This document shows, piece by piece, positions 47,754-58,360 of a stretch of DNA of 64,000 bases. Under the pieces are notes generated by a model. The model did not search any database. It saw only the letters and a list, made by a program, of their open reading frames with translations, and was not told the DNA's origin. Origin of the DNA: Escherichia phage FL08; the sequence record PP400785. One strand, given 5' to 3'. A program made the position numbers and the translations under genes. Numbering within the stretch: the stretch's first letter is position 1; each line of letters starts with the position of its first letter.

Positions 47754-47761
47754 TATAAATA
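47754..47761 (+). promoter_or_regulatory. late promoter (TATAAATA) for gene 34
   Basis: Exact TATAAATA 35 nt upstream of the gene 34 ATG; divergent from the rnh early promoter. Confidence 0.7.
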
Positions 47762-47795: not shown

Positions 47796-50700
47796 ATGGC
47801 CGAGATTAAAAGAAAGTTCAGAGCAGAAGATGGTCTGGACGCAGGTGGTGATAAAATAATCAACGTAGCTTTAGCTGATCGTGCCGTAGGAACTGACGGC
47901 GTTAACGTTGATTACTTAATTCAAGAAAACACAGTTCAACAATATGATCCAACTCGTGGATATTTAAAAGATTTTGTAATCATTTATGATAACCGCTTTT
48001 GGGCTGCTATAAATGATATTCCAAAACCAGCAGGAGCTTTTAATAGCGTACGATGGAGAGCGTTACGTACTGATGCAAACTGGACAACTGTTTCATCAGG
48101 ACCTTATCAATTAAAGTCAGGCGAATCAATTTCAGTTGATACTACAGCTGGTAATGACATTACATTTACTTTACCATCTACCCCAATTGACGGTGATACT
48201 ATCGTTCTCCAAGATATTGGAGGAAAACCTGGAGTTAACCAAGTTTTAATTACAGCTCCGGTACAAAGCATTGTAAATTTTAGAGGTCAGCAAGTACGTT
48301 CAGTACTAATGACTCATCCAAAATCACAGATAGTTTTAATTTTTAGTAATCGTCTGTGGCAAATGTATGTCGCTGATTATAGTAGAGAAGCTGTAGTTGT
48401 AACGCCTGCGAGTCTCTATCAGGCGCAATCAAACGATTTTATCGTGCGCAGATTTACTTCAGCCGCGGCGATTAATATTAAACTTCCGAGATTTGCTAAT
48501 CATGGCGATATTATTAATTTCGTTGATTTGGATAAATTAAATCCTCTTTATCACACAATTGTTACTACATATGATGAAACAACTTCAGTACAAGAAGTTG
48601 GAACTCATTCCATTGAAGGCCGTACATCGATTGACGGTTTCTTGATGTTTGATGATAATGAGAAATTGTGGAGATTGTTTGACGGGGATAGTAAAGCACG
48701 TTTACGCATTATAACAACTAATTCTAATATTCGTCCAAATGAAGAAGTCATGGTATTTGGCGCGAATAATGGAACAACCCAGACAATTGAACTTCAGCTT
48801 CCGACTAATATTTCTGTTGGTGATACTGTTAAAATTTCCATGAATTACATGAGAAAAGGACAAACAGTTAAAATCAAAGCTGCTGATGAAGATAAAATTG
48901 CTTCTTCAGTTCAATTGTTGCAATTCCCAAAACGCTCAGAATATCCGCCTGAAGCTGAATGGGTAACAGTTCAAGAATTAGTTTTTAACGGTGAAACTAA
49001 TTATGTTCCAGTTTTGGAGCTTGCTTATATAGAAGATTCTGATGGAAAATACTGGGTTGTACAACAAAACGTTCCAACTGTAGAAAGAGTAGATTCTTTA
49101 AATGATTCTACTAGAGCAAGATTAGGCGTAATTGCTTTAGCTACACAAGCTCAAGCTAATGCTGATTTAGAAAATTCTCCGCAAAAAGAATTGGCAATTA
49201 CTCCAGAAACGTTAGCTAATCGTACTGCTACAGAAACTCGTAGAGGTATCGCAAGAATAGCAACTACTGCTCAAGTTAACCAGGATACTACATTCTCTTT
49301 TGCTGATGATATTATCATCACTCCTAAAAAGCTGAATGAAAGAACAGCTACTGAAACTCGCAGAGGTGTTGCTGAAATTGCTACGCAGCAAGAAACTAAT
49401 GCAGGAACCGATGATACTACAATCATCACTCCTAAAAAGCTTCAAGCTCGTCAAGGTTCTGAATCATTATCTGGTATTGTAACCTTTGTATCTACTGCAG
49501 GTGCTACTCCAGCTTCTAGCCGTGAATTAAATGGTACGAATGTTTATAATAAAAACACTAATAATTTAGTTGTTTCACCTAAAGCTTTGGATCAGTATAA
49601 AGCTACTCCAACGCAACAAGGCGCAGTAATTTTAGCAGTTGAAAGTGAAGTAATTGCTGGACAAAGCCAAGAAGGATGGGCAAATGCGGTTGTAACGCCA
49701 GAAACGTTACATAAAAAGACATCAACTGATGGAAGAATTGGTTTAATTGAAATTGCTACGCAAAGTGAAGTTAATACAGGAACTGACTATACTCGTGCAG
49801 TCACTCCTAAAACTTTAAATGACCGTAGAGCAACTGAAAGTTTAAGTGGTATAGCTGAAATTGCTACGCAAGTTGAATTCGACGCAGGCGTCGACGATAC
49901 TCGTATCTCTACACCATTAAAAATTAAAACCAGATTTAATAGTACTGATCGTACTTCTGTTGTTGCTCTATCTGGATTAGTTGAATCAGGAACTCTCTGG
50001 GACCATTATACCCTTAATATTCTTGAAGCAAATGAGACACAGCGTGGTACACTTCGTGTAGCTACACAAGTTGAAGCTGCTGCAGGAACATTAGATAATG
50101 TTTTAATAACTCCTAAAAAGCTTTTAGGTACTAAATCTACCGAATCGCAAGAAGGTGTTATTAAAGTTGCAACTCAGTCTGAAACTGTGACTGGAACGTC
50201 AGCAAATACTGCTGTATCTCCAAAAAATTTAAAATGGATTGTGCAGAGTGAACCAACTTGGGCAGCAACTACTCTGATAAGAGGGTTTGTTAAAACTTCT
50301 TCTGGTTCATTAACGTTTGTTGGTAATGATACGGTAGGTTCAACACAGCCATTAGAATCATATGAGAAAAATGGTTATGCAGTATCACCATATGAATTAA
50401 ATCGCGTATTAGCAAATTATTTGCCATTAAAAGCAAAAGCTGTAGATAGTAATTTATTAGATGGTCTAGATTCGCTCCAGTTCATTCGTAGGGACATTGC
50501 ACAAACAGTTAATGGTTCACTAACCTTAACCCAACAAACGAATCTGAGTGCCCCTCTTGTATCATCTAGTACTGCTACATTCGGTGGATCAGTTTCAGCA
50601 AATAGTACATTAACTATTTCTAATACTGGAACGGCAACTCGTCTGATTTTTGAGAAAGGACCTCAAACTGGAACAAACCCAGCTCAAACGATGACAGTCA

Positions 50701-51665
50701 GAGTGTGGGGAAATCAGTTTAGTGGGGAATCAGACACAACACGTTCTACCGTATTTGAAGTTAGTGATGAAACGTCTAGTCATTTTTATTCTCAGCGTAA
50801 TAAAGCTGGAAATATAACATTTAATATCAACGGTACAGTAACACCGATAAATGTTAATGCTTCAGGAACATTGAATGCAAATGGTGTAGCAACATTTGGT
50901 AATTCAGTCACTGCAACTGGTGAAATTATTTCTCGAAGCGCAAATGCTTTCCGTGCTATTAACGGAAATTATGGTTTCATTGTTCGCAATGATGGGTCAG
51001 TAACGAATTTTATGCTTACTGCATCGGGTGATCAAACTGGCGGATTTAATGGATTGCGTCCTTTAGCTATTAATAATGCATCTGGCCAAGTAACGATTGG
51101 TGAAAGCTTAATCATTGCAAAAGGTGCTACTATAAGTTCGGGTGGTTTGACTGTTAACTCGAGAATTCGTTCTCAGGGTACTAAAACCTCTGATTTATAT
51201 ACCCGTGCGCCAACATCTGATACAGTAGGATTCTGGTCAATCGATATTAATGATTCAGCCACTTATAACCAGTTCCCGGGTTATTTTAAAATGGTTGAAA
51301 AAACTAATGAAGTGACTGGACTTCCATACTTAGAACGTGGTGAAGAAGTTAAATCTCCTGGTACATTGACTCAGTTTGGTAACACACTTGATTCACTTTA
51401 CCAAGATTGGATTACTTATCCAACGACTCCAGAAGCGCGCACCACTCGCTGGACCCGCACATGGCAGAAAACCAAAAACTCTTGGTCAAGTTTTGTTCAG
51501 GTATTTGACGGAGGTAACCCTCCTCAGCCATCTGATATCGGTGCTTTACCATCTGATAATGCTATAATGGGGAATCTTACTATTCGTGATTTCTTACGAA
51601 TTGGTAATGTTCGCATTATTCCTGACCCAGTGAATAAAACTGTTAAATTTGAATGGGTTGAATAA
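47796..51665 (+). CDS. 34: gp34 long tail fibre proximal subunit
   Basis: 1289 aa as in T4 gp34; internal ~40-aa tail-fibre repeats (ITPETLANRTATETRRGIARIAT..., ITPKKLNERTATETRRGVAEIAT...); late promoter upstream. Confidence 0.95.
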   Translation: MAEIKRKFRAEDGLDAGGDKIINVALADRAVGTDGVNVDYLIQENTVQQYDPTRGYLKDFVIIYDNRFWAAINDIPKPAGAFNSVRWRALRTDANWTTVSSGPYQLKSGESISVDTTAGNDITFTLPSTPIDGDTIVLQDIGGKPGVNQVLITAPVQSIVNFRGQQVRSVLMTHPKSQIVLIFSNRLWQMYVADYSREAVVVTPASLYQAQSNDFIVRRFTSAAAINIKLPRFANHGDIINFVDLDKLNPLYHTIVTTYDETTSVQEVGTHSIEGRTSIDGFLMFDDNEKLWRLFDGDSKARLRIITTNSNIRPNEEVMVFGANNGTTQTIELQLPTNISVGDTVKISMNYMRKGQTVKIKAADEDKIASSVQLLQFPKRSEYPPEAEWVTVQELVFNGETNYVPVLELAYIEDSDGKYWVVQQNVPTVERVDSLNDSTRARLGVIALATQAQANADLENSPQKELAITPETLANRTATETRRGIARIATTAQVNQDTTFSFADDIIITPKKLNERTATETRRGVAEIATQQETNAGTDDTTIITPKKLQARQGSESLSGIVTFVSTAGATPASSRELNGTNVYNKNTNNLVVSPKALDQYKATPTQQGAVILAVESEVIAGQSQEGWANAVVTPETLHKKTSTDGRIGLIEIATQSEVNTGTDYTRAVTPKTLNDRRATESLSGIAEIATQVEFDAGVDDTRISTPLKIKTRFNSTDRTSVVALSGLVESGTLWDHYTLNILEANETQRGTLRVATQVEAAAGTLDNVLITPKKLLGTKSTESQEGVIKVATQSETVTGTSANTAVSPKNLKWIVQSEPTWAATTLIRGFVKTSSGSLTFVGNDTVGSTQPLESYEKNGYAVSPYELNRVLANYLPLKAKAVDSNLLDGLDSLQFIRRDIAQTVNGSLTLTQQTNLSAPLVSSSTATFGGSVSANSTLTISNTGTATRLIFEKGPQTGTNPAQTMTVRVWGNQFSGESDTTRSTVFEVSDETSSHFYSQRNKAGNITFNINGTVTPINVNASGTLNANGVATFGNSVTATGEIISRSANAFRAINGNYGFIVRNDGSVTNFMLTASGDQTGGFNGLRPLAINNASGQVTIGESLIIAKGATISSGGLTVNSRIRSQGTKTSDLYTRAPTSDTVGFWSIDINDSATYNQFPGYFKMVEKTNEVTGLPYLERGEEVKSPGTLTQFGNTLDSLYQDWITYPTTPEARTTRWTRTWQKTKNSWSSFVQVFDGGNPPQPSDIGALPSDNAIMGNLTIRDFLRIGNVRIIPDPVNKTVKFEWVE

Positions 51666-51673
51666 GAGGTATT

Positions 51674-52792
51674 ATGGAAAAATTTATGGCAGAGTTTGGA
51701 CAAGGATATGTCCAAACGCCATTTTTATCGGAAAGTAATTCAGTAAGATACAAAATAAGTATAGCGGGTTCTTGCCCGCTTTCTACTGCAGAAGGACCAT
51801 ATGTTAAATTTCAGGATAATCCTATCGGAAGTCAAACATTTAGTGCAGGTCTTCATTTAAGAGTTTTTGACCCTTCTACAGGAGCATTAGTTGATAGTAA
51901 GTCATATGCTTTTTCTGCTTCAAATAATACTACATCAGCTGCTTTTGTCAGTTTCATGAATTCTTTGTCAAACAATAGACTTGTTGCTATATTAACTAGC
52001 GGAAAGGTTAATTTTCCTCCTGAGGTAGTGTCTTGGCTAAGAGCCGCGGGAACGTCTGCCTTTCCATCTGATTCTATATTGTCAAGATTTGACGTATCAT
52101 ATGCTGCTTTTTATACTTCTTCTAAAAGAGCTATTGCATTAGAGCATGTTAAACTAAGTAATAGAAAAAGCACAGATGATTATCAAACTATTTTAGATGT
52201 TGTATTTGACAGTTTAGAAGACGTCGGAGCTACGGGATTTCCTAAAAGAACGTATGAAAGCGTTGAGCAATTTATGTCAGCGGTTGGTGGAACTAATAAC
52301 GAAATTGCACGTTTACCAACTTCATCCGCGATAAGTAAACTCTCTGATTATAATTTAATTCCTGGCGATGTTCTTTATCTTAAAGCACAGCTATATGCTG
52401 ATGCCGATTTACTTGCGCTTGGAACTACAAATATATCTATCCGTTTTTATGATGAATCGAATGGATATATTTCTTCAACACATGCTGAGTTTACTGGTCA
52501 AGCTGGGTCATGGGAATTAAAGGAAGACTATGTAGTTGTTCCTGAAAATGCGGTAGGATTTACGATATATGCACAAAGAACTGCCCAAGCAGGTCAAGGA
52601 GGCATGAGGAATTTAAGTTTTTCTGAAGTATCAAGAAATGGCGGAATTTCAAAACCTGCTGAATTTGGCGTCAATGGTATTCGCGTTAATTATATCTGCG
52701 AATCTGCTTCACCTCCAGATATAATGGTACTTCCTACACAAGCATCGTCTAAAACTGGTAAAGTGTTTGGACAAGAATTTAGAGAAGTTTAA
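51674..52792 (+). CDS. 35: gp35 long tail fibre hinge
   Basis: 372 aa as in T4 gp35; AAGAGG SD. Confidence 0.88.
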   Translation: MEKFMAEFGQGYVQTPFLSESNSVRYKISIAGSCPLSTAEGPYVKFQDNPIGSQTFSAGLHLRVFDPSTGALVDSKSYAFSASNNTTSAAFVSFMNSLSNNRLVAILTSGKVNFPPEVVSWLRAAGTSAFPSDSILSRFDVSYAAFYTSSKRAIALEHVKLSNRKSTDDYQTILDVVFDSLEDVGATGFPKRTYESVEQFMSAVGGTNNEIARLPTSSAISKLSDYNLIPGDVLYLKAQLYADADLLALGTTNISIRFYDESNGYISSTHAEFTGQAGSWELKEDYVVVPENAVGFTIYAQRTAQAGQGGMRNLSFSEVSRNGGISKPAEFGVNGIRVNYICESASPPDIMVLPTQASSKTGKVFGQEFREV

Positions 52793-52797
52793 ATTGA

Positions 52798-52822
52798 GGG
52801 AGCCTTCGGGTTCCCTTTTTCT
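52798..52822 (+). terminator. rho-independent terminator after gene 35
   Basis: GGGAGCC-UUCG-GGUUCCC followed by UUUUUCUUU. Confidence 0.75.
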
Positions 52823-52823
52823 T

Positions 52824-52831
52824 TATAAATA
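52824..52831 (+). promoter_or_regulatory. late promoter (TATAAATA) for gene 36
   Basis: Exact TATAAATA 24 nt upstream of the gene 36 ATG, directly after the gene 35 terminator. Confidence 0.7.
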
Positions 52832-52854: not shown

Positions 52855-53511
52855 ATGGCTGATTTAAAAGTAGGTTCAACAACTGGAGGCTCTGTCATTT
52901 GGCATCAAGGAAATTTTCCATTGAATCCAGCCGGTGACGATGTACTCTATAAATCATTTAAAATATATTCAGAATACAATAAACCACAAGCTGCAGATAA
53001 CGATTTCGTTTCTAAAGCTAATGGTGGTACTTATTTAAATAAAGTAATTTTTAATAAAGGAATGACTGTTCCTGGCGCAGGGTCAGGCGATAATGGTATT
53101 TTTGCTGGTCCTGGTGATAGTGCCACGTATGATACTACAAATATGGATATTGTTTCGTGGTATGGTATTGGTTTTAAATCATCACAAGGAACAGCAGGTA
53201 GAACTGTAGTAATTAACACACGAAATGGAGATATTAGCTCAAAGGGCGTAATTGAAGCATCACAAATCCGTGTAACTTCGTTATCACCAGTAAATAATTA
53301 TGACCTTACGCGGAAAGATTATGTTGATGGAGCAATAAATATTGTTACAGCAAACGCAAACTCTAGGGTATTACGCTCTGGAGACACTATGACAGGAAAT
53401 TTAACTGCGCCAAACCTTTTTTCACAGAATCCTGCATCTCAACCCTCACATGTTCCACGATTTGACCAAATTGTTATTAAGGATTCTGTTCAAGATTTCG
53501 GCTATTATTAA
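52855..53511 (+). CDS. 36: gp36 long tail fibre distal connector
   Basis: 218 aa (T4 221); own TATAAATA late promoter. Confidence 0.88.
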   Translation: MADLKVGSTTGGSVIWHQGNFPLNPAGDDVLYKSFKIYSEYNKPQAADNDFVSKANGGTYLNKVIFNKGMTVPGAGSGDNGIFAGPGDSATYDTTNMDIVSWYGIGFKSSQGTAGRTVVINTRNGDISSKGVIEASQIRVTSLSPVNNYDLTRKDYVDGAINIVTANANSRVLRSGDTMTGNLTAPNLFSQNPASQPSHVPRFDQIVIKDSVQDFGYY

Positions 53512-53519
53512 GAGGACTT

Positions 53520-56500
53520 ATGGCTACTTTAAAACAAATACAATTTAAAAGAAGCAAAACTGCAGGAGCACGTCCTGCCGCTTCAGTATTAGCCGAAGGT
53601 GAATTGGCTATAAACTTAAAAGACCGTGTACTTTTTACTAAAGATGACCAAGGAAATATTATTGATCTGGGATTTGCTAAAGGCGGTAGTATTGACGGGA
53701 ATGTTATTCATACAGGCAATTATAACCAAACTGGCGATTATACTTTAAATGGCGTCTTCACTCAGACTGGTAATTTTAATTTAACCGGTACTGCTCGAGT
53801 AACTCGTGATATTATTGCCGCTGGGCAGATTATGACTGAAGGCGGTGAACTTATTACAAAAAGTTCAGGTACAGCACATGTTCGTTTTTTCGATGGCAAT
53901 AGTCGCGAACGTGGAATCATTTATGCCCCGGCTAATGATGGTTTAACTACACAAGTACTTAATATCAGGGTTCAAGACTACGCCGCTGGTGATGAAAATA
54001 CCTACGCGTTTTCAGGTACTGGTCTTTTCACAGCTCCAGAAGTTTCTGCGTGGAAATCTATTTCGTCTCCACAAATTCTGACCGACAAAGTTATTACAAA
54101 CGGGAAGAAGGCAGAAGATTATGATATCTATTCATTGGCAAATAACACCCCATTATCTGAAAGCACTACTGCTATTAATCATCTTCGTGTCATGCGTAAT
54201 GCAGTCGGTTCTGGTATTTTCCATGAAGTTAAAGACAATGATGGGATAACTTGGTATGCAGGTGATGGACTTGACGCCTATCTTTGGTCGTTTACTTGGT
54301 CAGGTGGATTGAAAGCGGGACATTCTATTTCTGTAGGCACCCCAGGCGGCCCCAAAGGATACTCTGAATTAGGGACTGCTTCAATTTCTCTTGGCGATAA
54401 TGATACCGGATTAAAATGGTATCAAGATGGTTATTTCTATGTAGTAAACAATGGTACGAGAACTTTCCTTTATAGTCCTGAATCAACCGTAAGCCTTAGA
54501 AAATTTGTAGCTGGATATTCTACTAACGGAACCGATTTAACTACTCCTCCAACTGAAAACTATGCTCTCGCTACTGTCGTGACATATCACGATAATAACG
54601 CGTTTGGAGATGGTCAGACTCTTTTAGGATATTACCAAGGCGGTAATTATCATCACTATTTCCGTGGTAAAGGTACTACAAACATTAATACTCACGGCGG
54701 TTTGTTAGTTACTCCTGGTAATATTGACGTTATTGGTGGTTCTGTTAATATCGATGGTAGAAATAATAATTCAACTTTAATGTTTAAAGGCTATACCATG
54801 GGTCAAAGCTCCGTTGATAACATGTATATAGCTGTTTGGGGAAATACTTTTACTAATCCAAGTGAAGGTACCCGTAAAAATGTCATGGAAATTTCTGATG
54901 ATATTGGATGGATGCATTATATTCAACGAACAACTGCAGGTAAAGTCGAATCGGTTCTAAACGGCACCCAGATTGTTAATGAAAACTTGACCGTAGTAAA
55001 AAATGCTACATTTGGTGGTACAATCAGCGCAGCAGGTGAAATTTCATCTGGGGCTGTGAATGCGCTTCGTATTTGGAACGCAGATTATGGAGCTATTTTT
55101 AGACGTTCAGAAGGTAGTCTTCATATTATTCCAACTGCTTATGGTGAAGGTAAACATGGTGATATCGGCCCACTTCGCCCGTTTAGTATGGCTTTAGATA
55201 CTGGTAAAGTTACTATTCCAGATTTACAATCAAGTTACAATACGTTCGCAGCAAACGGCTATATTAAATTTACTGGTCACGGTGCGGGCGCTGGCGGTTA
55301 TGATATTCAATATGTTCAAGCGGCTCCTATTTTCCAGGAAATCGATGATGATGCTGTAAGCAAATATTATCCTATTGTTAAACAGAAGTTTTTAAATGGT
55401 AAAGCCGTTTGGTCTTTAGGTACTGAAATTAATTCAGGTACATTCGTTATTCATCATCTGAAAGAAGATGGTTCACAAGGCCATACGTCTCGTTTTAATC
55501 AAGACGGTACTGTTAACTTCCCAGATAACGTTGCTGTCGGCGGCGGTGAAGCTACTATTGCTCGTAATGGTAACATCTGGTCTGATATCTGGAAAACGTT
55601 TACTTCAGCAGGCGACGTAACTAATATTCGCGATGCTATTGCTACTCGCGTTGCCAAAGAAGGCGACACGATGACCGGGCGCTTAACTCTTAATGCAAAC
55701 TCTGATGCCATCGTTATTAACAGCACCGCAACCGAATCTGGCTATTTGAAAGGACAAAAAGCCGGCGTTGATAACTGGTATGTAGGTAATGGTGGGACTG
55801 ATAATGCTATATCGTTTTATAGTTTCCGAACTAATTCAGGCATATATGTTAATAATGGTGGTGATATTGCTTTAAACCCGGAAGGGTCTGCCACTTTTAA
55901 TTTTAATAGGGATCGAATTTATATAAATGGGTCAGTCTGGGCCGCACACCAGGCTGGCGATTGGGGAAATCAATGGCGCCAGGAAGCTCCTGTATTTGTG
56001 GATTTTGGTAATGTCGGTAATGATAGTTATTATCCTATTATTAAAGGAAAATCTGGTATTACTAATGAAGGTTATATATCTGGTGTAGATTTTGGTATGC
56101 GCCGTATCACTAATACATGGGCACAAGGTATTATTCGTGTAGGCAACCAGGAAGGCGATTCTGACCCACAAGCGATCTATGAATTCCACCACAATGGAGT
56201 TCTGTATGCTCCTAATATGGTTAAAACTGGGGCAAGACTATCAGCTGGCGGTGGTGACCCGGTGTGGACTGGACCATGTCTTGTTATTGGTGATAATGAT
56301 ACCGGATTAGTTCATGGTGGTGATGGGCGAATTAACATGGTTGCAAATGGAGTGCATATTGCTTCGTGGTCAGCTGCTTATCAGATCCATGAAGGTCTTT
56401 GGGATTCAACTGGTGCTTTATGGACTGAAACAGGAAGAGCTATTATTTCTTATGGGCATTTAGTCCAACAAAGTGATGCCTATTCCACATATGTCCGCGA

Positions 56501-56849
56501 TGTTTATGTTCGTTCTGATATTCGTGTTAAAAAAGACCTTGTTAAATTTGAAAATGCTTCTGAGAAGCTTTCTAAAATTAACGGTTACACTTATATGCAG
56601 AAACGTGGAACAGATGAAGAAGGTAATCAGAAATGGGAACCTAACGCTGGTTTGATAGCTCAAGAAGTTCAAGCTATTTTACCAGAATTAGTTGAAGGTG
56701 ACCCGGATGGTGAAGCTTTACTTCGTTTGAACTATAACGGTGTAATTGGTTTAAATACAGCTGCAATCAATGAGCATACTGCAGAAATTGCGGAACTTAA
56801 ATCAGAAATTGAAGAACTTAAAGCATTAGTTAAATCATTGTTAAAATAA
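53520..56849 (+). CDS. 37: gp37 long tail fibre distal subunit with C-terminal chaperone-like domain
   Basis: 1109 aa; N-terminus [16 protein letters not shown]; last ~110 aa (SDIRVKKDL...INGYTYMQK...[16 protein letters not shown]...coiled coil) resemble an intramolecular-chaperone/autoproteolysis domain. Confidence 0.9.
56514..56849 (+). other. gp37 C-terminal intramolecular-chaperone (peptidase S74-like) domain
   Basis: Motif S-D-I-R-V-K-K (Ser with Lys five residues later) followed by GYTYMQK and [13 protein letters not shown] and a terminal coiled coil. Confidence 0.6.
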
Positions 56850-56854
56850 TAAGA

Positions 56855-56868
56855 GGGGCTTCGGCCCC
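56855..56868 (+). other. UUCG-tetraloop hairpin between genes 37 and 38
   Basis: GGGGC-UUCG-GCCCC followed directly by the gp38 SD (UUGGAGG); no U-tract. Confidence 0.5.
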
Positions 56869-56880
56869 TTGGAGGTTTAT

Positions 56881-57672
56881 ATGGCAGTAACAGGACCGTG
56901 GGTAGGATCGTCTGCAGTAGTTAATACAGGACAAAATTGGATGGGTGGTGCCGCGCAGAGATTGAGAATGGGAATTCCGTTTTGGATGAGTAATATGATA
57001 GGTCGATCTGTTGAAATAATTCACACGCTTGGAGCAGACCATAACTTCAATGGTCAATGGTTCCGAGATAGATGTTTTGAGGCAGGTAGTGCACCTATAG
57101 TGTTTAATATTACTGGAGATTTAGTATCATATTCTAGAGATGTTCCTTTATTCTTCATGTACGGAGATACACCAAATGAATATGTTCAGTTAAATATTAT
57201 TGGCGCTCATATGTGGGGTAGAGGTGGACAAGGTGGATGGACTCATTCCGGTGGAGATGGTAATGGACAACAAGGCGGGCATTGTATTCAAAACGACATT
57301 GGTGGACGATTAAGAATTAACAATGGTGGAGTAATCTGTGGTGGCGGAGGCGGTGGTGGCGGCATTGCTTACCGTGTTCACTCAGGGGCAAACTGGAAAG
57401 ATATTGGTGGTGGCGGCGGAAGACCATTTGGCCCAGGTGGTGGCGGTGGTTACTCAGGTGGCGCAGCTTCATACGTCGCCCCAGGAGGTGGTTACCAATA
57501 CGGAAATGCTCACTCTGGCCAGGGCGGCGATGCCGGAGGAAATGGACAAAATGCCTGGTCTGATGGTGGTAAAGTTCTAAAGGTTGGTGCAGGAGGAGCA
57601 GCAGGTTATGCTGTCATAGGATCTGCTCCAACTTGGCAAAATGTTGGAGTAATATATGGTCCAAGAGTATAA
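56881..57672 (+). CDS. 38: gp38 T2-type receptor-binding adhesin with glycine-rich motifs
   Basis: 263 aa from the ATG at 56881 (GGAGG SD); poly-Gly blocks ([40 protein letters not shown]) separating variable segments; unlike the T4 gp38 chaperone. Confidence 0.85.
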
Positions 57673-57703
57673 TTTTGAATAAATACCCCTAAAAGGAGGG
57701 TCT

Positions 57704-58360
57704 ATGGCAGCACCTAGAATATCATTTTCGCCCTCTGATATTCTATTTGGTGTTCTAGATCGCTTGTTCAAAGATAACGCTACCGGGAAAGTTCTTGCTT
57801 CCCGGGTAGCTGTCGTAATTCTTTTGTTTATGATGGCGATTGTTTGGTATAGGGGAGATAGTTTCTTTGAGTACTATAAGCAATCAAAGTATGAAACATA
57901 CAGTGAAATTATTGAAAAGGAAAGAAATGCACGCTTTGAATCTGTCGCCCTGGAACAACTCCAGATAGTTCACATATCATCTGAGGCAGACTTTAGTGCG
58001 GTGTATTCTTTCCGCCCTAAAAACTTAAACTATTTTGTTGATATTATAGCATATGAAGGAAAATTACCTTCAACAATAAGTGAAAAATCACTTGGAGGAT
58101 ATCCTGTTGATAAAACTATGGATGAATATACAGTTCATTTAAATGGACGTCATTATTATTCCGACTCAAAATTTGCTTTTTTACCAACTAAAAAGCCTAC
58201 TCCCGAAATAAACTACATGTACAGTTGTCCATATTTTAATTTGGATAATATCTATGCTGGAACGATAACCATGTACTGGTATAGAAATGATCATATAAGT
58301 AATGACCGCCTTGAATCAATATGTGCTCAGGCGGCCAGAATATTAGGAAGGGCTAAATAA
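57704..58360 (+). CDS. t: holin T
   Basis: 218 aa as in T4 T; single N-terminal TM segment (VAVVILLFMMAIVWY) and a large C-terminal domain; AAGGAGGG SD. Confidence 0.93.
   Translation: MAAPRISFSPSDILFGVLDRLFKDNATGKVLASRVAVVILLFMMAIVWYRGDSFFEYYKQSKYETYSEIIEKERNARFESVALEQLQIVHISSEADFSAVYSFRPKNLNYFVDIIAYEGKLPSTISEKSLGGYPVDKTMDEYTVHLNGRHYYSDSKFAFLPTKKPTPEINYMYSCPYFNLDNIYAGTITMYWYRNDHISNDRLESICAQAARILGRAK

Follow-up and report, generated by a model that had tools for sequence, protein, structure and literature searches.

Processed gp37, polyglycine gp38 and recombination at the conserved motifs of such tail-fibre tips have been described since the 1980s-1990s, with structures following in 2018 and 2026. 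gp37 processing, the architecture of the tip and Gly-motif recombination are already published, recur in hundreds of phage genomes and are restated here as prior knowledge (PMC3157838, PMC7917993, PMC6851490, PMC12032242). In phage S16, gp37 is cut at DLNVS^SDRRIKK and its last 113 residues are shed, which exposes the docking surface for gp38 (PMC7917993, citing Dunne 2018). The S16 structure has been described with gp38 docked on the gp37 tip (PMC6851490, PMC7917993), the tryptophans of gp38 being prongs that enter pockets of gp37 (PMC6851490). The C-terminus of T2 and T6 gp37 is likewise removed by proteolysis, and gp38 caps the fibre (PMC3157838). The role assigned to gp38 in the virion and in receptor recognition is taken from the S16 structure and from the genetics of T2, T6, PP01 and AV119 (PMC6851490, PMC3157838, PMC12892980, PMC12032242).

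The window analysed in this study is a stretch of 64,000 nucleotides of Escherichia phage FL08 (PP400785). The segment of interest extends from the codon of gp37 Ser999 (56514) to the stop of gene 38 (57672), these ends having been placed to the base by the original prediction. Gene order is 37-38-t, with gene 38 lying between a gene 37 that encodes a predicted cleavable chaperone domain and the holin gene t:

53520..56849, plus strand: gene 37, precursor of the distal subunit of the long tail fibre (ORF, 1109 aa)
56881..57672, plus strand: gene 38, adhesin of the tail fibre, T2/S16 type (263 aa, reading from the ATG at 56881 to the stop at 57672)
57704-58360: gene t (Phage_holin_T, E 2e-117)

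For gene 38, the in-frame TTG at 56869, given as its start in the list of open reading frames, was rejected, since a GGAGG (56871-56875) is located 5 nt upstream of ATG 56881, and this ATG yields the 263-aa length of AV119 gp38 and a match to the Gp38_N profile from position 1.

With a probability of roughly 0.9, the segment encodes the tip by which a long tail fibre of T2/S16 type binds its receptor, on a T4-like Tequatrovirus backbone, a reading that includes cleavage of gp37, docking of gp38 and recognition of OmpA. The domain identities, the conservation of the dyad, the breakpoints and the near-identity to AV119 that carry this reading were computed here, while cleavage, stoichiometry, docking and OmpA are taken from relatives.

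The product of gene 38 matched (i) Pfam GP38 over residues 45-263 (profile positions 1-218 of 218, 226.8 bits, E 3.7e-67), (ii) Pfam Gp38_N over residues 1-40 (positions 1-40 of 40, 75.3 bits, E 3.7e-21), (iii) PHROG 2056 ("tail fiber protein; host specificity", E 6e-109), and (iv) the solved adhesins of PP01 (PDB 9V85, E 2e-74) and S16 (6F45_D, E 4e-54). It also aligned end to end with gp38 of T2, RB69, AV119 and S16. By these matches gp38 is an adhesin of the T2/S16 type, in which two regions were distinguished:

56881..57000, plus strand: N-terminal attachment domain, gp38 residues 1-40, with Trp7, Trp20 and Trp35 (Pfam Gp38_N)
57217..57621, plus strand: gp38 residues 113-247, hypervariable loops set between Gly-rich motifs (polyglycine-II sandwich, predicted receptor-binding face; 40% Gly)

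The DNA of the attachment domain is 100% identical to that of RB51, RB68 and PE37, and its three tryptophans are invariant in six gp38 proteins (window phage, AV119, Jbel, RB69, T2 and S16). Glycine accounts for 26% of all gp38 residues, which is far above chance considering its share in gp37 (12.5%) and gp34 (7%). There are 16 runs of at least two Gly, including one of eight (154-161) and two of five, coded by GGT/GGA/GGC repeats with a local GC content of 54%, compared with ~35-40% nearby. Invariant Gly columns border variable stretches in the gp38 alignment, and residues 113-247 could be aligned to the receptor-binding domains and polyglycine sandwiches of PP01 and S16 (9V85, 6F45_D). The original prediction had described gp38 as a 263-aa adhesin of T2 type with poly-Gly blocks separating variable segments, and both the architecture and the family are borne out. 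By analogy with its relatives, gp38 would form a virion cap docked on the gp37 trimer at a gp37:gp38 ratio of 3:1.

The most likely receptor of this gp38 is E. coli OmpA, recognized at its outer loops with the broad type 1 specificity of AV119. Residues 87-263 are identical to those of AV119 gp38 at 176 of 177 positions, the sole difference being K173Q. Infection by AV119 is OmpA-dependent, as determined with MG1655 deletion mutants, and each residue modelled as an OmpA contact in its gp38 (R165-A170, D217, R181 and R262; PMC12032242) is kept here (R165, V166, H167, S168, G169, A170, R181, D217 and R262). A lesser but appreciable chance is that the same architecture serves another receptor (Tsx, OmpC, OmpF or FadL) or binds OmpA together with a second one. 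Lys173, replaced by Gln in both AV119 and Jbel, lies in a hypervariable loop near the modelled OmpA-contact loop, and a few substitutions suffice to move gp38 between OmpA and Tsx or to broaden its specificity (PMC3157838, PMC12032242). Moreover, the top structural score was obtained with PP01 gp38, which binds OmpC (PMC12892980). This score is, however, due to the conserved beta-helix and Gly motifs, the loops being different, and the near-identity of the whole receptor-binding half to the OmpA-dependent AV119 protein argues for OmpA, given that closely related gp38 proteins share their receptor (PMC12032242).

The protein that would carry this adhesin, gp37, matched PHROG 1699 ("long tail fiber protein distal subunit") over its full length (E 0), and its gene shows ~90% nucleotide sequence identity to those of Jbel, RB69 and other T-even phages. 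The following features were assigned within it:

54771..55220, plus strand: shaft domain (gp37 residues 418-567) with homology to the C-terminal trimerisation domain of gp34 (Pfam Gp34_trimer, E 1e-7)
56277..56513, plus strand: predicted beta-helical distal tip of mature gp37 (residues 920-998), for gp38 docking (alignment to S16 gp37)
56514..56846, plus strand: gp37 residues 999-1109 (111 aa), intramolecular chaperone / Peptidase_S74 domain with C-terminal coiled-coil helix (Pfam PF13884)
56514..56516, plus strand: codon of Ser999, predicted nucleophile, with the predicted scissile bond between Arg998 and Ser999 (invariance and alignment with the S16 cleavage site)
56529..56531, plus strand: codon of Lys1004, which is predicted to act as general base in the Ser-Lys dyad (invariant Lys five residues past Ser)

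The shaft domain also matched gp34 in PDB entries 5nxf/4uxe (E ~5e-17), and residues 920-1109 aligned with S16 gp37 (PDB 6F45 chain A, E 1.9e-43). By profile homology, the extreme C-terminus of the fibre protein, residues 999-1109, is a domain of the Peptidase_S74 / intramolecular-chaperone type: PF13884 was matched by residues 999-1058 (profile positions 1-57 of 58) with E 9.4e-13 and 48.7 bits, the curated Pfam cutoff for this family being 22 bits. An S74-like C-terminus of about 110 residues with a Ser/Lys dyad had been proposed from the letters alone. The Pfam search recovered the domain, 111 residues were counted from Ser999, all the peptide strings that had been quoted are present in the translation, and the dyad (Ser999 and Lys1004) was found and is invariant in both alignments made. 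The two residues fall in an S-D-x-R-x-K motif at the start of the domain, of which Ser999, Asp1000, Arg1002 and Lys1004 are invariant across six T-even gp37 proteins, and the Ser, Asp and Lys across 12 fibres, a second alignment that spans Straboviridae, Demerecviridae, Drexlerviridae, Kyanoviridae, Vequintavirinae and others.

Cleavage between Arg998 and Ser999 is predicted from relatives. The gp37 sequence DVYVR^SDIRVKK aligns with the S16 autocleavage site, Ser999 corresponding to the second Ser of that site. A profile built from 12 homologues matched MYRF (7DC3, E 1e-14), a tail fibre (8JOV, E 2e-7) and the chaperone of the GA-1 neck appendage (3GUD, E 2e-3) in the PDB, and the chain of 3GUD, a released chaperone fragment, starts at the Ser that aligns with Ser999. 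The same profile gave weak matches to coiled coils for the C-terminal helix. A single-sequence AlphaFold2 model of residues 979-1109 had a mean pLDDT of 63.6 with the terminal helix alone confident (for the last 45 residues a helix is predicted at pLDDT 72-90 within this weak overall model), and when the model was run through Foldseek against the PDB, nothing was returned at E below 1, so that the assignment of the S74 fold is based on sequence and profile homology.

It is improbable that the domain has degenerated into a folding aid that does not cleave itself, or that a host or phage protease makes the cut. Cleavage in this phage is predicted from sequence, and Arg precedes the Ser, compared with Ser in S16. 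T2, however, also has Arg at this position, and gp37 of T2 and T6 is said to undergo processing (PMC3157838); Ser, Asp and Lys are unchanged in distant fibres, and a retained domain would block the docking of gp38 (PMC7917993). In addition, the chaperone domain shares 97.5% identity with its RB69 counterpart and as much as 99% with those of other isolates, which indicates purifying selection. The domain was found by tblastn in 1681 phage records.

A tip of the T2/S16 type with an active chaperone domain could be assembled as follows. In the 1109-aa gp37 precursor, the last 111 residues (S74 domain and coiled-coil helix) would drive trimerisation and folding of the beta-helical tip. Once the trimer has folded, Ser999, activated by Lys1004, would cut the Arg998-Ser999 bond and the chaperone would depart, laying bare a three-fold symmetric hydrophobic tip on which one gp38 monomer may dock through its N-terminal helical domain, with Trp7, Trp20 and Trp35 inserted into the gp37 tip. 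The remainder of gp38 would form a beta-helix and a polyglycine-II sandwich, in which the Gly motifs provide a rigid core and the hypervariable loops touch the receptor.

The close relationship of the surrounding DNA to T4 (97-100% identity on both flanks, in agreement with the original prediction of a T4-like window), together with several records that name the homologous gene "distal long tail fiber assembly catalyst", could suggest that gp38 is a non-structural assembly chaperone and that gp37 retains its C-terminus for binding of the receptor, as in T4. We consider this very improbable. A BLASTP comparison with T4 gp38 gave a best E of 0.78 over 20 residues, as opposed to the adhesin families and structures matched above. 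In gp37 only the first ~60 residues are near-identical to T4 gp37 (34% identity thereafter), and in the protein alignment no significant match to the C-terminal receptor-binding region of the T4 protein was found past residue ~690, the protein ending in Peptidase_S74 instead. On these two grounds a T4-type chaperone was rejected. "Assembly catalyst" is a legacy annotation, and the records of RB69 and T4 themselves call gp38 of the T2 subfamily the adhesin; by sequence, the gp38 of the window is a T2/S16-type adhesin unrelated to the T4 chaperone.

The limits of the segment that differs from T4, and a junction inside it, were located by blastn:

53686, no strand: left end of T4 homology, gene 37 codon ~56 (end of blastn HSP against T4, NC_000866)
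57223..57228, no strand: mosaic junction, where RB69-/RB51-type homology ends (57227) in the first Gly motif, GGTGGA (blastn HSP ends)
57679, no strand: right end of the swapped segment, 7 nt past the gene 38 stop (start of T4 HSP, 97.9% identity onward)

No nucleotide homology to T4 was detectable by blastn between 53686 and 57679. Because T4 homology halts at the first of these positions and returns at the second, the tip module is swapped relative to T4, and the sharp breakpoints agree with the mosaic exchange that had been anticipated. RB69, a member of Mosigvirus, shares ~72% identity in the backbone and 90-99% over 53400-57227; RB51 is 98-100% identical over 56500-57100 (100% for 56800-57000), and AV119 is ~100% identical over 57150-57750. 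On the evidence of these alignments the module is mosaic, being composed of blocks like those of RB69/RB51 and blocks like those of AV119 that meet at conserved Gly motifs. The DNA coding for the Gly blocks had also been put forward as a recombination substrate, with which the end of RB69/RB51 homology at 57227 and the restart of T2 homology within the last such motif (GGAGGA), at 57592, are consistent, although breakpoints in Gly motifs may partly mirror where conservation permits BLAST alignment, and not crossovers. The module would have been acquired and reshuffled through homologous recombination at conserved sequence islands, the putative sites of exchange being the borders between genes 36 and 37 and between genes 38 and t, together with the first Gly motif and the last. 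Fast local divergence under host-range selection, with no horizontal exchange, might be suspected from the diversifying selection that acts on tail-fibre tips and from the swings in gene 37 identity to any single relative (57%-98%), but it is scarcely plausible, as T4 gp38 and the present gp38 are unrelated proteins, the similarity to RB69, a phage of another genus, jumps across gene 37, and the 100%-identical donor changes from block to block, the latter two observations pointing firmly to recombination as the origin.

The junction of genes 37 and 38 contains a further conserved element:

56853..56870, plus strand: hairpin with a UUCG tetraloop in the intercistronic region (GAGGGGC-UUCG-GCCCCUU), after the stop of gene 37 and before the ribosome-binding site of gene 38

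The hairpin (-15.1 kcal/mol, z -1.7) is kept in AV119, Jbel, RB69 and T2, and in its S16 counterpart two pairs are changed in a compensatory way and the loop is UACG. A matching stretch is labelled "terminator" in the record of phage G4507; a classic intrinsic terminator was rejected, since the scan flagged the minus strand only and the plus strand has no clean T-run. Partial termination, stabilisation of the transcript or damped translation of gene 38 could be its mode of action. In the RB51-type block (56500-57100), the chaperone domain, the hairpin and the first part of gene 38 all fall in DNA of 98-100% identity. It is a speculative and rather doubtful idea that this UNCG hairpin, found from Tequatrovirus to Gelderlandvirus, is a dedicated regulator that sets the 3:1 ratio of gp37 to gp38 and travels with the chaperone and attachment domains as one recombination unit. 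The late-promoter motif TATAAATA was not enriched across the window (12 observed, 9 expected), and no copy of TATAAATA lies directly before gene 37 or 38. Two copies of TATAAATA are placed as in T4, closely preceding gene 34 (47754) and gene 36 (52824). A sigma-70 promoter scan, which is uninformative for late genes, gave 22 sites compared with 19 in shuffled sequences, i.e., no excess.

As regards annotation and the prediction of host range, gene 38 should be named an adhesin and not an "assembly catalyst", mature gp37 is predicted to comprise residues 1-998, and OmpA, with broad "type 1" specificity, is the probable receptor. The succession of blocks, i.e., an RB69/RB51-type shaft and chaperone, an RB51-type attachment domain and an AV119-type specificity domain, is a tidy natural case of the exchange points exploited in host-range engineering.

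Among the known systems, the S16 tip, gp37(3)-gp38 (PDB 6F45; PMC6851490, PMC7917993), has the same gene order, 37-38-t. The last 190 residues of gp37 are 52% identical, with the SD-R-KK motif and the coiled-coil tail in common, and gp38 is also 52% identical, with the three Trp, the beta-helix and the Gly motifs shared, as is the UNCG hairpin. S16 gp37 is, however, shorter (749 aa versus 1109 aa), Ser and not Arg precedes its scissile bond, an insertion of 12 residues precedes the cleavage site in the FL08 protein, and the hypervariable loops of S16 gp38 are different, its receptor being Salmonella OmpC. gp38 of AV119 (type 1, OmpA-dependent; PMC12032242) is 96% identical overall and differs at 10 positions, nine of them within the N-terminal 86 residues, the first part being RB51-type here; the AV119 gene 37 is similar in patches of only ~58-98% identity. 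Gene 37 of RB69 shows ~89% nucleotide identity over most of its length (98% amino acid identity in the last 190 residues); RB69 and RB51 both carry another gp38 specificity domain, and RB69 gp38 is 70% identical overall, with homology gone at 57227.

T2 resembles the locus in having a gp37 with an S74 domain and an SDIR-K motif (processed, PMC3157838) and, after it, an adhesin gp38 rich in Gly. The label "T2-type" given in the original prediction is apt for the architecture; at the DNA level the likeness to T2 does not hold, as its gene 37 has no detectable nucleotide homology, its gp37 (1341 aa) is 29-34% identical and its gp38 46% identical, and its chaperone domain is devoid of the last ~11 helix residues. 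The nearest relatives of the module are of RB69/RB51/Jbel/AV119 type. PP01 gp38 (PDB 9V85; PMC12892980) is the best-scoring solved structure, almost identical over residues 37-150 and sharing the polyglycine sandwich, but it differs in the receptor loops and binds OmpC of E. coli O157. The chaperones of endosialidase-type fibres and of MYRF (3GUD, 7DC3) have in common with gp37 the Pfam family, the Ser-Lys motif and the C-terminal position followed by a helix, whereas their sequences are distant and their passenger domains unrelated; unlike in these proteins, release of the domain from gp37 would also create the docking site for a second protein.

The region 56514-57672 begins exactly at the Ser999 codon of gp37 (the long tail fibre distal subunit) and ends at the stop codon of gene 38. 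The locus contains the following features:

53520-56849, + strand: gene 37, ORF of 1109 aa; late gene, in the same orientation as genes 38 and t
56853-56870, + strand: UUCG-tetraloop hairpin (GAGGGGC-UUCG-GCCCCUU, -15.1 kcal/mol)
56881-57672, + strand: gene 38, ORF of 263 aa counted from the ATG; late gene
57704-58360, + strand: gene t (holin), Phage_holin_T, E 2e-117; late gene

The gene 38 ATG is preceded by GGAGG (56871-56875) with a 5-nt gap. An in-frame TTG at 56869 came only from a mechanical listing of starts, and the GGAGG position favours the ATG at 56881.

The gp38 protein is covered end to end by Pfam GP38 (E 3.7e-67) and Gp38_N (E 3.7e-21), belongs to PHROG 2056 ("tail fiber protein; host specificity"), and matches both solved gp38 adhesins (PMC12892980, PMC6851490), i.e., the receptor-binding domain of PP01 (9V85; E 2e-74) and the S16 protein (6F45_D; E 4e-54). 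The poly-Gly blocks of the original prediction were found as 16 runs of at least two residues, including one of eight and two of five, encoded by GGT/GGA/GGC codons with a GC content locally up to 54%; glycine makes up 26% of the protein and 40% of residues 113-247. In an alignment of six sequences, variable stretches are framed by invariant glycine-motif columns, and Trp7, Trp20 and Trp35, whose S16 equivalents are prongs inserted into gp37 pockets (PMC6851490), are invariant (6/6). The T4-type alternative, in which gp38 is an assembly chaperone, was excluded: T4 gp38 shows no similarity to this protein (best E 0.78), and gp37 is close to its T4 counterpart only in the first ~60 residues, with ~34% identity up to ~690, where the likeness stops.

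The peptides quoted from gp37 were all found in the translation, and its C-terminus carries the S74-like domain proposed for it: Pfam Peptidase_S74 ("chaperone of endosialidase") spans residues 999-1058 (E 9.4e-13; 48.7 bits, cutoff 22), and the S16 gp37 construct of PDB 6F45 aligns with residues 920-1109 (E 1.9e-43). Ser999, Asp1000, Arg1002 and Lys1004 are invariant in gp37 of this phage, AV119, Jbel, RB69, T2 and S16. The expected Ser/Lys dyad (Ser999, Lys1004) was also retained, together with the Asp, in 12/12 fibres of a wider alignment, which took in the domain from nine further fibres retrieved by tblastn (including Jiaodavirus, Slopekvirus, T5-like Epseptimavirus, Drexlerviridae, Aeromonas, Vibrio and Vequintavirus phages and a cyanophage). 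The resulting profile matches the autoprocessing domain of MYRF (7DC3; E 1e-14), a tail fibre (8JOV; E 2e-7) and the chaperone fragment released from the neck appendage of phage GA-1 (3GUD; E 2e-3); this fragment starts with a Ser that aligns with Ser999. According to PMC7917993 (citing Dunne et al. 2018), the C-terminal 113 residues of S16 gp37 cleave themselves off at the Ser^Ser bond in DLNVS^SDRRIKK, exposing the gp38 docking surface. Since DVYVR^SDIRVKK aligns in register with this site, gp37 is predicted to be cut at Arg998|Ser999, freeing 111 residues. A single-sequence structure prediction of the domain was poor (pLDDT 63.6) and a fold search with this low-confidence model gave no matches; the putative fold assignment rests on profile homology, not on the model. 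Further upstream, residues 418-567 (54771-55220) share homology with the trimerisation region at the C-terminus of gp34, the proximal fibre protein (Pfam Gp34_trimer, E 1e-7; PDB 5nxf/4uxe, E ~5e-17), which indicates that shaft modules are probably shared or duplicated between both half-fibres.

A nucleotide-identity plot bore out the swapped tip in a T4-like surrounding: both flanks are 97-100% identical to T4, with homology stopping at 53686, around codon 56 of gene 37, and returning at 57679, 7 nt past the gene 38 stop. The T2-type label fits the adhesin architecture but not the descent of the DNA: no T2 nucleotide homology was detectable across gene 37, the gp37 proteins share 29-34% identity, and T2 homology begins again only at 57592, the last Gly motif. 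T2 itself is not close kin to this module. Judged by identity, the module is assembled from three donor types: (i) RB69 (90-99% over 53400-57227), a phage of a different genus with a ~72% identical backbone, (ii) RB51 (98-100% over 56500-57100), spanning the chaperone domain, intergenic hairpin and gp38 attachment domain, and (iii) AV119 (~100% over 57150-57750). Gene 38 is itself mosaic, with an RB51-type 5' part and an AV119-type 3' half. Its first ~130 nt, the hairpin and the chaperone-domain DNA match RB51/RB68/PE37 at 100% identity, against ~88% for AV119/RB69/Jbel, giving six amino acid differences within residues 4-19 (including Ser, not Trp, at position 10) and combining an RB51-type attachment domain with a 98% RB69-type gp37 tip.

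RB69/RB51 homology is lost at 57227, within GGTGGA (57223-57228), the first of the Gly motifs. The pattern agrees with what Tétart et al. and Trojet et al. described, namely exchanges in or beside conserved motifs flanking the specificity domain (PMC3157838). The proposal that GGN repeats serve as recombination substrate is therefore reasonable, though already published, and part of the coincidence may merely mark the limits of alignable sequence. By DNA, 637 phage records match the module, and 875 match gp38 by protein; over the whole module, no phage in the collection comes closer than Jbel at 90%, so the exact combination of blocks is a new allele, although the design is widespread. Elsewhere, a conserved ~290-nt island (53400-53686) spans the gene 36/37 junction. 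The middle of gene 36 (52950-53400) is a further diverged patch, 69-78% identical to T4; together with gene 34 (50550-51000) it shows 57-78% identity to T4/T2 and 75-100% to Jbel or AV119, which indicates more small cassette exchanges in proximal and hinge fibre genes.

The gp38 protein is 96% identical to that of AV119, with nine of the ten differences within residues 1-86 and only K173 versus Q from residue 87 to the end. AV119 is a member of the "type 1" OmpA group, which has a broad host range, and loses infectivity on deletion of ompA in MG1655; models of this group place R165-A170, R181, D217 and R262 in contact with loops of OmpA (PMC12032242). The gp38 studied here retains every one of them. 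Given this near-identity and the retained contacts, OmpA is predicted as the primary protein receptor, at odds of three in four or slightly better; the main caveat is that gp38 specificity can be shifted by a small number of substitutions in the loops. Lys173 (57397-57399), which is Gln in both AV119 and Jbel, lies in a loop adjoining the modelled contacts and could tune host range.

The 37/38 hairpin lies directly 3' of the gene 37 stop, touches the gene 38 Shine-Dalgarno sequence and travels with the module. This UNCG hairpin is conserved: AV119, Jbel, RB69 and T2 all keep it, and in S16 two pairs are changed in a compensatory way and the loop reads UACG. With a z-score of -1.7, its fold does not stand out. 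The corresponding stretch of phage G4507 carries the annotation "terminator", but the + strand lacks a clean T-run after the hairpin. Hairpins of this kind are frequent between T4 cistrons. A second CUUCGG-type hairpin with a T-run (GAGGGAGCC-TTCG-GGTTCCCTT; 52796-52831) follows gene 35, and the late-promoter motif TATAAATA occurs immediately after it (52824), upstream of gene 36, and again at 47754, ahead of gene 34. The hinge protein gp35 (51674-52792; 372 aa) matches, at residues 59-124, Pfam ILEI (interleukin-like EMT inducer, PF15711; E 5e-8; 33.8 bits, cutoff 27), a family whose name one would not expect to meet in the hinge of a tail fibre.

By analogy with S16, T2/T6, PP01 and AV119, the chaperone domain would promote trimer folding, Ser999/Lys1004 would cut the Arg998-Ser999 bond, the domain would depart and one gp38 monomer dock on the exposed three-fold tip, and hypervariable loops carried on a polyglycine sandwich would bind OmpA. 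What the sequence comparisons show directly is which domains are present, that the dyad, the Gly motifs and the Trp prongs are conserved, where the breakpoints lie, and that gp38 is nearly identical to an OmpA-dependent adhesin. In Klebsiella phages KSKp and KMI10 (Jiaodavirus, Slopekvirus), gene 37 ends in the same cleavable-type domain and the next gene encodes ~175 aa (528 nt), not a 260-aa Gly-rich adhesin, a pairing that differs from both T4 and T2. The KMI10 record labels this ~175-aa gene "distal long tail fiber assembly catalyst", the KSKp record only "hypothetical protein". For the module studied here, observation and interpretation of the original prediction both hold, with the S74-like domain, the dyad and the alignment to T2-type adhesins all found: it is a textbook T2/S16-type host-range module, whose kind, mechanism and evolutionary behaviour are already known.
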